From: Cladosporium halotolerans
Lineage: Eukaryota
Direction of reading: 5' to 3'
Assembly (NCBI RefSeq): GCF_011745625.1
Contig: NW_027191460.1
Location: forward strand, 124,001-188,000
DNA: 64,000 nucleotides
Both the position numbers and the translations under genes were made by a program. Below, piece after piece: positions 40,334-48,805 of this stretch. The notes beneath the pieces were generated by a model, which was not told where the DNA came from, searched no databases, and saw only the letters and a program-made list of their open reading frames with translations. The number at the start of each line of letters is the position of its first letter. Positions within the stretch are counted from its first letter, which is position 1.

Positions 40334-42514
40334 ATGTCGGGACCCGTCAAGCGCACCGCGACCGCGACCGCCGACGCCGACGCCGCGAAACCCAACAACC
40401 CGCTGCAATCCAACTTCAACGCCGACGACTCCTCGAGCATCGACGAAGACGAGCGCTACCTGGTAAGATGAGTCGGGAGCTAGGGCGCACGAGCGCACCA
40501 GACAACAAAGATACCAAGCACATCGGCAATCCCACCTTCGGCGCATATCAGTGAGTACGAGATGGCATCAAGTGTAAAAACCAAAAACGTATAAGTCATG
40601 GCACGCGGGTGCCCGCAGACACACTCCGTTGCGAGCGCTTCCTTGCGACCCTGTCCCTTCGACGGACAGAGGCAAGGGGGCAAGCCGGGGGAACATGCTG
40701 CGGGCTGAGATCAAACCGCTTTTATGTTGAACTTGAACGCATTCGTATGCGCGGAAGGAGATGCTATGACTGATATCTAGAGCGATGCTCCTTATCCTCC
40801 CCTCTGTTTGAGACGGTAGATGCTAACGCCTAGAAGCGCGCCCTCGGATACAAGCAGGTATGTTGTGGCACTTCTTGACGTATCCGAGTAGATCGCTAAC
40901 CAATGCCAGTCGCTGCACCGCCAATGGAAGTTCTTTGAGAGCTTTGCCGCAAGCTTCGGTTTGTCTCGACCAGTCATAGCATAAGACAGCTTACTGACTC
41001 TGATAGCCGCCCTCTACTCTGTCGGTGGTATTCGTACGACCTTCACCATCGGTGTACAAGCAGGAGGACCTGCCGCTTACTGGTAATTCACCAGCCACAC
41101 GATGCTGCGACAAAGGCATACTAACAGTCACAGGTCGAGCTATGTCGTCACCTGTGTTTTTGTCATGATCACCGCAGCCGTGCTTGCAGAGATCTGTTCT
41201 GCACTCCCTGCAGCTGGCTCCATCTACTTCTGGGCTGCCGAAGCTGGTGGCACAAAGTACGGCAGGCTGTTCGGCTTCATCGTCGCGTGGTGGGCCACGA
41301 CCGCTTGGACAACCTTCGTCGCCAGCTTGTCCCAAGCCACTGCCAACTTCCTGCTCTCCGAAATCAGTGTCTTCAGACTCGCATTCTCCACGGACGTCAA
41401 TGACATCCACTTCCGTGCCGTCCAATGGATCGTCTCGGAGGTCATCCTCTTCCTGGGTATCGGAATGAACTACTTCGACCCCAAGATCTACCGCTGGATC
41501 TTCCGCATCGCGACCTACCTGATCCTCCTCGACTTCGCGCTGAACATCATCTGGCTCCCCATCGGCGTCTCCAAGACCTACGGCTTCCAGACCGCCGAGT
41601 ACGTCTTCACGCAAACCTACAATGAAACCGGCGCCCCTCCCGTCTGGAACTGGATGCTCTCCTACTACGTCACAGCCGGCATCCTCGTCGGCTTCGAAGC
41701 CTCCGGCCACATCTCGGAGGAGACGCAAAACGCCCAGACGACCGCCGCGCGCGGCATCTTCTGGTCCGCCGGCGCCTCCGCCCTCATCGGCTTCCCCGTC
41801 GTCATCCTCTTCCTCTTCTGCCTGCCCGACCTCAGCGTCCTCGACGCCCTCTACGAAGCCGGCACGCCCCAGCCCTTCCTGCACATCTACGATATGGCCC
41901 TCGGCCGCGGCGGCCACGTCTTCATGAACGTCATCTGCATCCTCGGCCTGCTCTTCAACCTCACCATCGCCGGCGTCGCTTCCAGCCGCCTCATCTGGGC
42001 CGTCGCCCGCGACGGCGTCCTGCCCTTCAGCGGCTGGATCAGCCAGGTGTCGGGCAAAAAGGAGCCCCGCAACGCCATCATCGTCATGCACGCCTTTAGC
42101 GCCCTCCTCCTCTGCACCATCCTCGCGTCGCCCGTCGCCTTCCCCTCCCTCGTCTCCGCCGCCGGCGTCCCGACCATCACCTCCTACGCCCTCATCGCTT
42201 TCGCCCGCTGCTTCATCACGCCGCACGAGTTCAAGCACGCCGCGTGGTCGCTGGGCCGGTGGTCCCGCCCGCTGGCGTTTGTCACTTTCGTCTGGAATGC
42301 GTTTTTGGCCGCCGTGCTGTTCAGCCCGCTGTACTTCCCCGTCACGGCCGAGGGCTTCAATTACTCGCCGGTGATTTTTGGCGCCGTCACGATTTTTGCC
42401 CTCGTCACGTGGTGGGTTACGCCCGAGGAGAAGTGGTTGCCGAACGCGCGGTTGGGGAAGGTGCATACGCTTGATGAGGGGTTTGTGCCTAGGGAGAGGA
42501 ACGAGGCGTCGTAG
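40334..42514 (+). CDS. THI9: APC-family permease, Thi9-like probable thiamine/thiamine-precursor transporter, 5 exons
   Basis: Exons 40334-40462, 40834-40857, 40910-40958, 41007-41082 and 41134-42514 give '..DERYL|KRALGYKQ|SLHRQWKFFESFAASF|..GGPAAYW|SSYVV..LAEICSALPAAGSIYFWA..GFEASGHISEET..SRLIWAVARDG'. Substrate is inferred from the TPP riboswitch in intron 1. Confidence 0.85.
40595..40770 (+). ncRNA. TPP (thiamine pyrophosphate) riboswitch aptamer in intron 1 of the permease
   Basis: P1 GTCATGGCA(40595)/TGCTATGAC(40770); P2 GCGG(40605)/CCGC(40716); GGGTG; P3 GCCCGCAG(40611)/CTGCGGGC(40698) with a long extension; CTGAGA at 40705-40710; P4/P5 GAACTTGAAC-GCATTCGTATGC-GCGGAAGGA. Confidence 0.92.
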
Positions 42515-42630
42515 TGGGAGGGTTGTGGCGTGGTGGTGGTGGTGGAGGTGGTGGTGGTGGTGAGTCTGAGCTGAGCTGAGGTTGGTTGGCGTGGTGACGT
42601 CGTCGTCATCACGTGCTCGCAAAAGAACAG

Positions 42631-42653
42631 AAAAAAAAAAAAAAACACAAAAA
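42631..42653 (-). terminator. Oligo-T Pol III terminator (T5, then T15)
   Basis: + strand A5 at 42649-42653 and A15 at 42631-42645, immediately after the 3' strand of the terminal stem. Confidence 0.6.
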
Positions 42654-42880
42654 CACCAGCAGGGTTCGAACCCCCAACAGCCCGAGCAAAAGAACCACCC
42701 CGCCTCGCTCGGGGGGTGTCAAGAAAACCGCTCTCTCACAGCAAGTTTTACTTTTGGTGGGGCGCGCCAGCCGAACAGTCCTCGGTACCTGGCGAGCGGG
42801 CCTGTACTGCATACCGTGACCCGGTCCCGCGCGGCGTACCACTGCGCCACGCAGGACTGAACGCCTGCTCGTGTGCTGGT
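42649..42880 (-). ncRNA. Unassigned structured ~230-nt RNA polymerase III-type RNA gene
   Basis: Minus strand: TATATAAA ~30 nt upstream, A box TGGCGCAGTGG (42849-42839), B box GGTTCGAACCC (42672-42662), terminal stem ACCAGCA/TGCTGGT, five internal hairpins and T5 + T15 terminators. Confidence 0.7.
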
Positions 42881-42903
42881 TGTGTCATTTGGGGTTGCGC
42901 GTG

Positions 42904-42911
42904 TTTATATA
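42904..42911 (-). promoter_or_regulatory. TATA box of the putative Pol III RNA
   Basis: TATATAAA on the minus strand, first T 31 nt upstream of the predicted 5' end (42880). Confidence 0.6.
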
Positions 42912-43695
42912 GGTGAAGCGGGGGACGTGGGGGGAGTGAGGTGAGGTTAGGTTAGGATAGGTGGCATAGGGGTGGGGTTGGCTAGATGTTGTACAGTACA
43001 CGTATAGATGCATTTTCTTATTGTCATCCGCTGTTTGCTGCTCTAGGGAGTGTTTGCAGTTGCCGTTAGGGGGTGCTGGTATAGGGTGTGAAAGTGAGGT
43101 GAAGTGAAGTGGCGGAAGTCACGTGACAGGGGGTATCACTTGTGGGCTTGCTACGTGAGGGAGACGCGCGACGGTTCCTACGAGTCATGTGACAAACCGC
43201 GTAACGTGTCGGCGATTTGAGGAGCACAAGTGATGCGTGGCTAGAATATTGACGTGTGTCACATGATCATAGAGTGAAAACGCGAATGTGCGCGGAAGTC
43301 TTGCTAAGGTGAAAGGGGAGCACGTGAGTTTGTACGTCTGTATGCCATGAATTCTCTCGTTAGAAACACCAACCATTCCGTACAGACTTTTCTTGTGCCG
43401 CTTTCGACGATGCTGGGAATCGTGTCAAAGCGCTGCAAACGTATCGGTATTAACAAAAACGCCATGGGGGTATCTATGCTTATGCCGCTGGTGTGGCCGA
43501 ATGCTGCCAAATAGCAAAACGCGACAAGGAAAGAAGAGTGGAGAGAGTACAACAGGCCGAGCAAGGGGACTCTCCCATGCAGAAAAAGAAAGGAAGAAGC
43601 AAAAGAAAACATCCACGCCACCCAGTTCTTGACGTCTAACCCCCTGTGCTCCCCGGTCTTGGACGTCAGAATCTTCCGGCCACATATCTAACAGC

Positions 43696-46170
43696 TCAGC
43701 GTGGTGTCCTGGCAAGCTCGCCCACGACTCGTTTCAGAGCCTTGAACTGGCCGTCCATCTCCATGATCGTGTCGGTTTGCATAGCAACCGCGCCGTCATA
43801 CTCAGTCTTAGCCTTTTCGAGTTCGCTGTCGAGATGCTGTTTGAGGTTCGCTTGGATCGCAGTTTCCATCCCCATGCGAAGTTGCTCGAGGTTGTTGTCG
43901 AATGCGTCGACGAAGCCCTTGAGTTCCGCGATCTGCTTGTTTGAAGAGGTCTTATCCTGGAGCTGCTGTTCACCAGCCTTCGCCTGTTCCGCACGCAGCG
44001 CGGCCTGGGCATGCTCCAAGGCTTGAACCCTGCTGTTCAGCGAACGCACTGCGGCTTCAAAGTCTTTCGCCGCGGGGTACATTTTGCTCATCTGGTCGAC
44101 CATGGCTTTGACGACTTCTTCGGTGGTCAGGTTGTCAAAGCGTTGTCTCAGTTGCTGGATGTGACCGATGATGCCGTTGATCTGGTTTTGGAGTATCAGA
44201 AGCTCTTGGGATGAAGGCCCTGGGGGACCATTGTTTGCTGTGTTGAGAGGGCTGCCATTTGCTGGCGAACTGATTCCGTTTGTTTGCACAGACTGCATGG
44301 GCATGTTCGATCTCGGATTGTGGCTGGTCGATGTTTGCGGAGGCAGCGATCGGGTCTGCCATGCGCCAGCTGGTGGCGAAACTGCATGGCTGGTCGAAGC
44401 AGACTTTTCCAGAGCCTGGACTGTCGAAGACAAGCTCGCGAAATTTGACTGCAGACCCTCCAGTGTTTTTGCCAGTGAGCCTACCTGTGCACTTACCCAC
44501 GATTGCAAGTCCCTAAGGTCCTTCGCAGCCTCTTCCTTATTGGCAAGCCCTCCGATTTTCTTGGCCAGGGAGTCCAGCTCTTCTTTCTTGACAATGGTTG
44601 TGTTCGCCGAGTCTGCCCAAGATTGCAGATCTGTAGTTTTCTTTCGCAGCTGGTCCAGTTCTTTACTGCAGTCGAGCTCTTCAACTTTCTTATCGAGCTT
44701 CGTTTGAAGTTCGCCCGCGGCTTTCATGAACTCCCCCGACAGCACCTGGTCCCTCTGGTCTGAATCTGCTTCAATATCGGCTTTGAGGTTTTCAATCGAG
44801 TCATTGAACAAAGTCTCTGTGATGAACTTGGAATGAAAGTCGCTCCGGGCATCAGCAGATCTGCTGTCTTTCATCTGCTGGATGTCTGCTTGAATGTCCA
44901 TGATGGATTTTTCAAGCTGTACGGCACCGGCAACAGCAGGTTGGGTCGTATTGACATCTGTAATCGTCTGGAGTTTTCTGGTGATCAGCTCTTGACTTTC
45001 CAGGCGCTTCGAAAGGGATCCTTTATGGTCTCCTGAAGCCTCGTTCTGGACCTTATAGAGGTCTATACGACAGCTGTCGACCTGGTCACTAATGACATCA
45101 ACGCATCCCCTGAGGTCGGAGATGTCTGCGGTGATAGAATCAAAGTTCTGGGCGATGTTGGCTTTTTCGGTGACCTGAAGTGTTTTGAGCTTCGAAACAT
45201 CCGCCTTGGTCACGCTGAGGTCACGCGCGTGACCCTCGATCTTGACGTGATCATCTTGGGTAAGCTTTGCTAAAGCCTCAAGTTTCTCAATTCGAGGCTG
45301 GAGCTTCCTTTCCACATGCTCAGTTGAGGTTTGTTCCGCGCGCGTTAACTGCTCCTTCAAAGCCGTCGTATCGGATTTTGTCGATTGCTGCATGGAAGAT
45401 ATCTGCGCCTTCCGCGTCGCACAATCCTCTCTGATTTCTCTCAGAGCAGTTTGAAGCTCTACGATGGTGGCTTGCTGCTTATCAAAGCGAGCCATCAGGC
45501 CGCTGTGATTGGTCTGCAGTGCATCGAACTCGTCACGTGACACGCTGTCTGGGTGAGCATCAGTGCTTATAGTCAAGTTTACTATTGCCTGGCACAGAGC
45601 CTGAGTAATCCCAGACTGCGCGTTCTCTTTATCCTTCAGTTCACCCGCGAGGCTGGCAACCTTCTCCTCGGCTTCATCCCTTGCCTTACTGACCCGTTTT
45701 CGAATGTCGGGGAATCTGTCGAAGTTGCTGTTCATGTTTTTGAACTCAATTTCTGCAGTTTCAGACTGCTCCTTTGCCAGGTTGCGAGATACATGGAGGG
45801 CTGCTTCAGCAGTAAGCTGGGAGACCATGCTTTTCACAGCATCTAGTAAAGAGTTCGCCAGAGACTCTTCTACACGCGCCTCCTGCGGGGCTTGCATGAT
45901 GGCGGTCTGGACATTCGCTTGGTGAGGTTGAGGTGTTGATCGAGAACTTGCGACATCTTGGTAAATACTCCCGTCGGTGCTGCCTGGAGAGCGAATGGTT
46001 AGAGTGGTCCTCCTACGAGGGTCTGCATTTGAATTGACAATGTTGGCATTTCCAATCGAGGCTTTTCGCTGATCGTCAATGCCGTTCGCCGCTGGTGAGC
46101 CTTTCGAGACCTTCCTCTGGGCATTCGACCCCTCTGGGGAACGGCTTTGTTTTCTTTTCGCAGGGTTCAT
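43696..46170 (-). CDS. Large coiled-coil protein of unknown function (824 aa; possible extra 5' exon(s) from ATG 46686)
   Basis: Uninterrupted ORF with heptad-rich helices and 'LRQRFDNLTTEEVVKAMVDQMSKMYP'. A GTAAGT donor at ~46399 and a CTAAC..AAG acceptor just before 46170 suggest upstream exons. Confidence 0.75.
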   Translation of the reverse strand: MNPAKRKQSRSPEGSNAQRKVSKGSPAANGIDDQRKASIGNANIVNSNADPRRRTTLTIRSPGSTDGSIYQDVASSRSTPQPHQANVQTAIMQAPQEARVEESLANSLLDAVKSMVSQLTAEAALHVSRNLAKEQSETAEIEFKNMNSNFDRFPDIRKRVSKARDEAEEKVASLAGELKDKENAQSGITQALCQAIVNLTISTDAHPDSVSRDEFDALQTNHSGLMARFDKQQATIVELQTALREIREDCATRKAQISSMQQSTKSDTTALKEQLTRAEQTSTEHVERKLQPRIEKLEALAKLTQDDHVKIEGHARDLSVTKADVSKLKTLQVTEKANIAQNFDSITADISDLRGCVDVISDQVDSCRIDLYKVQNEASGDHKGSLSKRLESQELITRKLQTITDVNTTQPAVAGAVQLEKSIMDIQADIQQMKDSRSADARSDFHSKFITETLFNDSIENLKADIEADSDQRDQVLSGEFMKAAGELQTKLDKKVEELDCSKELDQLRKKTTDLQSWADSANTTIVKKEELDSLAKKIGGLANKEEAAKDLRDLQSWVSAQVGSLAKTLEGLQSNFASLSSTVQALEKSASTSHAVSPPAGAWQTRSLPPQTSTSHNPRSNMPMQSVQTNGISSPANGSPLNTANNGPPGPSSQELLILQNQINGIIGHIQQLRQRFDNLTTEEVVKAMVDQMSKMYPAAKDFEAAVRSLNSRVQALEHAQAALRAEQAKAGEQQLQDKTSSNKQIAELKGFVDAFDNNLEQLRMGMETAIQANLKQHLDSELEKAKTEYDGAVAMQTDTIMEMDGQFKALKRVVGELARTPR

Positions 46171-47317: not shown

Positions 47318-48805
<1,488 letters not shown>

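Follow-up and report, generated by a model that had tools for sequence, protein, structure and literature searches.

A candidate tRNA-derived Pol III structured RNA from a small dispersed family in Cladosporium halotolerans

To our knowledge, the Pol III transcriptome of filamentous fungi essentially comprises tRNAs, 5S rRNA, U6, SRP RNA and RNase P/MRP RNA. The promoters of the yeast genes SNR6, SCR1 and RPR1 have a TATA box upstream, an A box inside the gene and a B box some distance away. Another kind of Pol III product is the vault RNA, which has an A box near its 5' part, a B box near its 3' end and a TATA-like element upstream. The 5' and 3' ends of vault RNAs are paired, their central part is variable, and several paralogs are present. 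BC1 and 4.5SI are lineage-specific, tRNA-derived Pol III RNAs in which the tRNA-like promoter region has been refolded into an extended hairpin.

The element described here is a unit of about 230 nt on the minus strand of Cladosporium halotolerans. Its promoter layout is that of SNR6, SCR1 and RPR1, but the U6, SRP and RNase P products are excluded here by Rfam. With vault RNAs it shares the promoter layout, the paired ends, a variable part and the occurrence of paralogs, a likeness of architecture only; it differs from them in its size (about 230 nt vs about 90-140 nt) and in having no match to the Rfam Vault model. The comparison with BC1 and 4.5SI rests on the extended hairpin, the narrow taxonomic range, the paired ends and the U tail. 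Unlike these RNAs, however, the element is larger, has its B box at the 3' end and 177 nt from the A box, and forms a family with a common internal core. It is also similar to a tRNA gene, with D-loop-like and T-loop-like motifs and a possible 7-bp acceptor-type pairing beside a T-arm-like hairpin, but there is no cloverleaf or anticodon arm. Vault particles are given as missing in fungi (PMC3762200). Within the texts covered on fungal Pol III RNAs, SINEs and tRNA-like RNAs of Dothideomycetes, no such RNA is described.

In the window, that is, the whole 64-kb stretch of DNA that was analysed, the element lies between two convergent protein ORFs, as the original prediction had placed it. The neighbour on the plus strand carries Pfam amino-acid permease domains (E = 3.6e-45) and ends at 42514, and the one on the minus strand, an ORF of 824 aa, ends at 43696. 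Among the 120 permease matches listed, the named relatives are Dothideomycetes with about 75-81% identity, and include Cryoendolithus, Saxophila, Hortaea, Teratosphaeria and Zasmidium. By these relatives, the organism is itself a Dothideomycete. A Pfam search with the 824-aa ORF (43699-46170, minus strand) returned no family; by eye, it looks coiled-coil-like. A GGT/GGA-rich run at 42526-42560 (CAC repeats on the minus strand) is present 3' of the permease stop and breaks contigs in all runs. A 91-aa ORF spans the element itself. It has no Pfam family, and the coding reading of the element was rejected.

Each of the Pol III signals reported earlier, namely a TATA box, an A box, a B box, T5 and T15, is present on the minus strand at its place. 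The putative TATA box TATATAAA (42911-42904) is found about 30 nt upstream of the probable start; its pattern, TATAWAW, is rare, with six occurrences on both strands of the 64-kb window. Judging by spacing, the transcription start zone would be 42878..42883, where purines are present about 30 nt past the TATA start, and ACCAGCA is found at 42880-42874. The A box TGGCGCAGTGG (42849-42839) falls within a 13-bp hairpin and the B box GGTTCGAACCC (42672-42662) within a T-arm-like hairpin. Both were identified as pattern matches and both fit the consensus, with their start points 177 nt apart vs about 30-60 nt in tRNA. The B box is followed by TGCTGGT (42661-42655), then a G, and then an oligo-T tract (42631..42653) made up of T5 (42653-42649), GTG and T15 (42645-42631), which would be the Pol III terminator.

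The single motifs are too common to count alone. The A-box pattern has three matches in the window vs 1.06 expected, and the B-box pattern has three vs 0.54, one palindromic site being counted on both strands. The ordered set was defined as TATAWAW, TRGCNNAGTGG, GGTTCGANNCC and then T5 within 40 nt. It has a single occurrence in the window, and none of the 300 dinucleotide shuffles (both strands scanned) reproduces it. The Pol III-type ordered signal set is real and non-random, and this part of the earlier claim is upheld. A second B-box match, at 48337, is situated within coding-like sequence. It was also observed that a 10-mer, GTTCTTTTGC on the minus strand (42686-42695), which belongs to the family core discussed below, is repeated at 42619-42628, just downstream of T15. 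This repeat may be the trace of an old duplication, or chance.

We put the chances at about even that the element is a member of a small dispersed, lineage-specific gene family of tRNA-derived, structured Pol III RNAs of about 230 nt. The promoter would be of a hybrid type, in which TFIIIB would occupy the TATA box, at about -30, and TFIIIC both the internal A box at about +33, carried by an extended D-arm-like hairpin, and the B box 177 nt further, in a T-arm-like hairpin near the 3' end. Pol III would start near 42881 and stop in the T5/T15 tract, the oligo-T terminator. The ends of the RNA would be closed by a terminal stem, leaving a U tail for La binding. A 45-nt core would act as the platform for a protein partner, with the neighbouring hairpin free to vary, and the presumed function would be that of an RNP. 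One feature that speaks against such a gene family is the position of the A box, at +33, as tRNA genes have theirs closer to the start.

The element was compared with the known RNA families. Rfam 15 gave nothing at gathering scores over the whole 64-kb window. At E <= 10, nothing relevant was returned on 1001 nt around the element, and only two matches, both chance, on 258 nt (42628-42885). The Rfam tRNA covariance model has no match at E <= 10 on 42628-42885. Neither the window nor, in the default or the intron mode, the element yields a tRNA with ARAGORN; on the element there are only forced models at the 80% and 70% thresholds, with several mismatched acceptor pairs (three in the model at 80%). 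The SRP models, helix 8 motifs included, do not match at the gathering threshold or at E <= 10, and neither do the RNase P/MRP, U6, Y RNA and snRNA models at E <= 10, the 258 nt included. The Vault model also gives no match, and vault RNA length is about 80-150 nt vs about 230 nt for the unit. As judged by the Rfam and ARAGORN models, the element is not a tRNA, SRP, RNase P/MRP, U6, vault or Y RNA. This agrees with the earlier reading of the letters, in which no cloverleaf acceptor stem and no U6, SRP or RNase P/MRP motifs were seen.

It is very improbable that the element is a non-canonical SRP, RNase P/MRP or snRNA missed by the Rfam models, as with basidiomycete SRP RNA. Fungal SRP RNAs can indeed escape model-based searches (Dumesic et al. 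2015, PMC4605306), but the same source gives the helix 8 alterations as absent from Ascomycota, where helix 8 is canonical. Moreover, the models of all these RNAs fail to match the 258 nt even at E <= 10, and an essential RNA with a single function would hardly be present in about eight diverged copies whose hairpin varies. An SRP RNA reading was rejected since no SRP model matches and the element is multi-copy.

The 233-nt RNA is predicted to fold with a minimum free energy (MFE) of -111 kcal/mol (z = -3.04), and one of the 200 shuffles is as good; the adjacent upstream 233 nt give -26 kcal/mol (z = +0.83). The opposite strand has a fold weaker by 12 kcal/mol and a z of -3.06. As this is practically the value of the element, the z-score alone cannot name the strand, and the failure of the element to outscore its complement counts against the gene-family reading.

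In the 5' domain (minus strand throughout), the 13-bp hairpin at 42824..42857 contains the A box and has a loop, CAGUGGUA, that is D-loop-like. Its pairs are formed with probabilities of 0.99-1.0, in agreement with the original prediction, and its 5' part is kept in a paralog (record 13). The second hairpin (42797..42823) and the third (42766..42793, loop GGACUGU) had also been proposed, and both are present in the MFE structure. In another paralog (record 12), two nucleotides are missing at 42771, in the 3' strand of the third hairpin. In all three RNA runs, an A>G change was seen on the plus strand at 42806. On the RNA it would read U>C, and it is therefore taken as a strain variant. It converts one predicted A-U pair, in the inner stem of the second hairpin, to A.C, and this broken pair is a further point against an RNA gene family. 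The bases CAGUCCU (42859-42853) at the foot of the A-box hairpin were seen to be complementary to the loop AGGACUG (42782-42776) over 7 perfect bp. They may form a pseudoknot or an alternative fold, in competition with the 4-nt kissing contact between loops suggested earlier.

Two more hairpins had been drawn in a second domain. Both exist in the ensemble, but with probabilities of only about 0.45 for the one at 42724..42749 and about 0.4-0.45 for that at 42713-42681. The former is variable; its A-U base is conserved, and its inner pairs vary yet stay complementary. The B box is placed in a T-arm-like hairpin (42660..42676) with a 5-pair stem and a 7-nt loop. The terminal stem pairs 42864..42874, its 5' strand, with 42663-42653 at 10 of the 11 positions (p 0.87-1.0); its 3' strand (42653..42663) overlaps the TGCTGGT motif. 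This stem replaces the closing stem proposed earlier, ACCAGCA/UGCUGGU, which has an ensemble probability of 0.0. The proposed helix GGCGU/GCGCC, also at 0.0, is not favoured thermodynamically.

The stretch is contained in 20 of the 24 listed sequencing runs, which come from 16 studies; six of them are RNA libraries from five studies. One DNA run (X4) and three RNA runs (X16, X17 and X18) were compared, and X19 and X20, with word shares of 0.42, were left out of the evidence. X4 is of the same species, with one other letter in 551 over 42700-43250. Its depth is 163 in the bin 42691-42721 vs 19-20 in the flanks (about 8x). Outside the core, the unit is at 1-3x flank depth, and the window-type copy is at single-copy depth. 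From contigs and depth in X4, a 45-nt core common to the family is defined at 42685..42729 (minus strand). It is carried by six listed X4 contigs and continues into at least four different contexts, and there is no second copy of the core or the element within the 64-kb window. Thus, the single independent gene of the original prediction gives way to one member of a dispersed family with a 45-nt core.

On the 3' side, all three other continuations in X4 contain a B-box-like TTCGAGTC at the same relative place as the B box. With 30 letters given for each, T5 is present in one of the three and a T-rich tract in one. In two other copies, a comparison by hand reveals a regular T stem of 5 bp and, after it, 7 nt and then a T-rich tract. 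This arrangement would favour a tRNA origin of the 3' module. On the 5' side, two other continuations (one from X4 and one from X17) retain a motif of the CCACC-G-AAAG type and have a hairpin where the window copy has 42749-42724. The three versions of this hairpin, again compared by hand, have 8-9 pairs each and share four basal A-U pairs, while their inner pairs read GCU/AGC, CAC/GUG and CCGC/GUGG (loose ends at 42729, X4/X17). This comparison, within one species, is the sole covariation obtained.

Two paralog pieces are about 82-88% alike to the window copy. Record 12, aligned over 42700-42786, differs at 10 letters and has 3 gaps. For record 13, from X4, the alignment covers 42835-42922, with 15 letters that differ and 1 gap; its eight itemised differences are all within 42867-42891, and differences less than about 31 nt from the end of a piece are not itemised, the alignment spanning the TATA region at less than letter-level detail. 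The upstream block of this alignment is 42882..42922 (minus strand), and homology stops at 42922. In the other direction, record 13 turns to unlike sequence past the A-box hairpin, so the copies are mosaic. Since the core is nearly invariant while the copies are otherwise 12-18% diverged, a bound partner is suggested.

Simple-repeat-like CCTAA and CACYTCAC motifs occur upstream of the element (42928-42957 and 43088-43111), and an X4 paralog also has a CACTT-type repeat directly upstream (joint 42922 to 43092). They could be a common upstream element or a favoured insertion context. A search of metagenome contigs with the exact core 21-mer gave no matches. A degenerate two-gap pattern gave 90 loci there, and blastn to all 90 returned only chance matches (at most 32 nt, E >= 0.02). 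Two patterns searched in prokaryote genome contigs also gave no matches.

In the three RNA runs, the unit is covered at a depth of 2-22 (2.2-22) and 42939-43250 at 0, and the X4 DNA covers the latter at 20. The unit without these flanks in RNA-library contigs is what the proposal of an RNA had led one to expect. X17 also has a paralog, at depth 16. The contig of X18, 249 nt in length, runs from 42878 to about 42630 if colinear, which is the predicted Pol III unit. That of X16 runs from 42917 to about 42601 if colinear, some 30 nt past T15, and that of X17 extends to 42918 with 5 more letters, past the TATA box. In X16, a permease-like fragment has a depth of 2.7 vs 2.98 for the unit and looks like DNA, which counts against expression. 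Such contigs give no RNA ends, strand or level, and the bins 42474-42659 are partly masked repeats (masked 42520-42661), where RNA-contig cover is uninformative. As the contigs of two of the three RNA runs reach 37-42 nt upstream of the predicted start, and one passes T15, the exact transcript is not fixed. These overhangs also weigh against the gene family, as a Pol III transcript should not extend beyond the TATA box or beyond T15.

They may instead reflect an RNA of about 320 nt that extends from about 42923 to about 42601 and is either a Pol II product or begun further upstream, with the TATA box and the T runs internal to it. Besides the X16 and X17 contigs, the ability of leader and trailer to pair fits such an RNA. 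However, it leaves unexplained the Pol III signals, which are not due to chance, and the B box and T tail in other copies; its z-score is weaker (-1.96), and the X18 contig fits the short unit. The longer transcript is, on balance, improbable. The same low standing is given to a decayed relic of a tRNA gene or a tRNA-derived repeat, which would carry its Pol III signals by descent and produce no stable or functional RNA. The D-loop-like A box, the T-loop-like B box and the possible 7-bp acceptor-type pairing are what a relic might retain, and ARAGORN can only force its models on the element. Nevertheless, a relic is hard to bring together with a strong fold over 230 nt, a core of 45 nt that is near-invariant across copies otherwise 12-18% diverged, and the occurrence of the unit in RNA-library contigs free of its flanks.

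The main rival of a Pol III RNA gene family, though unlikely, is a mobile element, non-autonomous and of low copy number, that spans about 323 bp (42923-42601) and has a tRNA-derived Pol III unit inside it. It may be the solo LTR of a Helenus-like TRIM or some other DNA-level mobile unit, and the RNA would then be a by-product of its own promoter. The core is multi-copy, with at least four contexts and a mosaic relation between copies, and three independent boundaries coincide: paralog homology stops at 42922, the X17 contig ends 5 letters beyond 42918, and the X16 contig ends at 42917, with its opposite end at about 42601. Directly outside both boundaries is ACGTC (42928-42924 and 42600-42596). 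Random pairs match at 0.0017 exactly and at 0.03 with 2 nt slack on each side, the boundaries being inferred from contig ends and the end of paralog homology. This 5-nt direct repeat abutting the unit is one more argument against the gene family. If the unit were amplified in some strains, trace DNA would explain the flankless 'RNA' contigs. On the other hand, no TG...CA termini or terminal inverted repeats are seen by eye at the inferred boundaries, and the 64 kb hold no second copy, PBS or PPT. For the window-type copy, X4 gives single-copy depth, and the others are 12-18% diverged. The longer flank similarity is not significant, its score being reached by 68 of 300 shuffles, and since both copies carry similar simple repeats of the CACYTCAC type on the upstream side of 42922, the boundary may be less than sharp.

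Like Helenus/TRIMp3, the element is a dispersed unit with A and B boxes of tRNA type, and a 5-bp duplication may flank it. In Helenus, boxes of this type are located in the LTRs, and 5-bp duplications accompany many of the solo LTRs (PMC10886601). However, the element is of low copy number and shows no TG...CA, LTR pair, PBS or PPT in the window. Among fungi, the same source reports Helenus from Basidiomycota only, that is, from Pucciniales and some Agaricomycetes, and not from Ascomycota. A SINE is also a misfit. The unit ends in a T run in place of an A-rich or LINE-type tail, the upstream TATA region is common to a paralog, and the flank similarity that could stand for a target-site duplication is the one reached by 68 of 300 shuffles. 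As for copy number, the core at about 8x flank depth, with the rest of the unit at 1-3x, comes from one DNA run.

The reading as a gene family can be carried further, though doubtfully. Dothideomycetes may possess an expressed family of several genes, so far undescribed, for giant tRNA-like Pol III RNAs, with D- and T-arm-like modules, a terminal-stem clamp and a 150-nt insert, whose invariant 45-nt core would nucleate a new RNP, a functional counterpart of the vault or Y RNPs in fungi devoid of these.

The Dothideomycetes include many plant pathogens and extremotolerant black yeasts. If the element is a mobile unit, it would extend the elements that carry Pol III promoters to the Ascomycota and would give rise to false 'orphan RNA' calls. 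A further structured RNA family with a conserved core would instead point to an unknown RNP in the Dothideomycetes.
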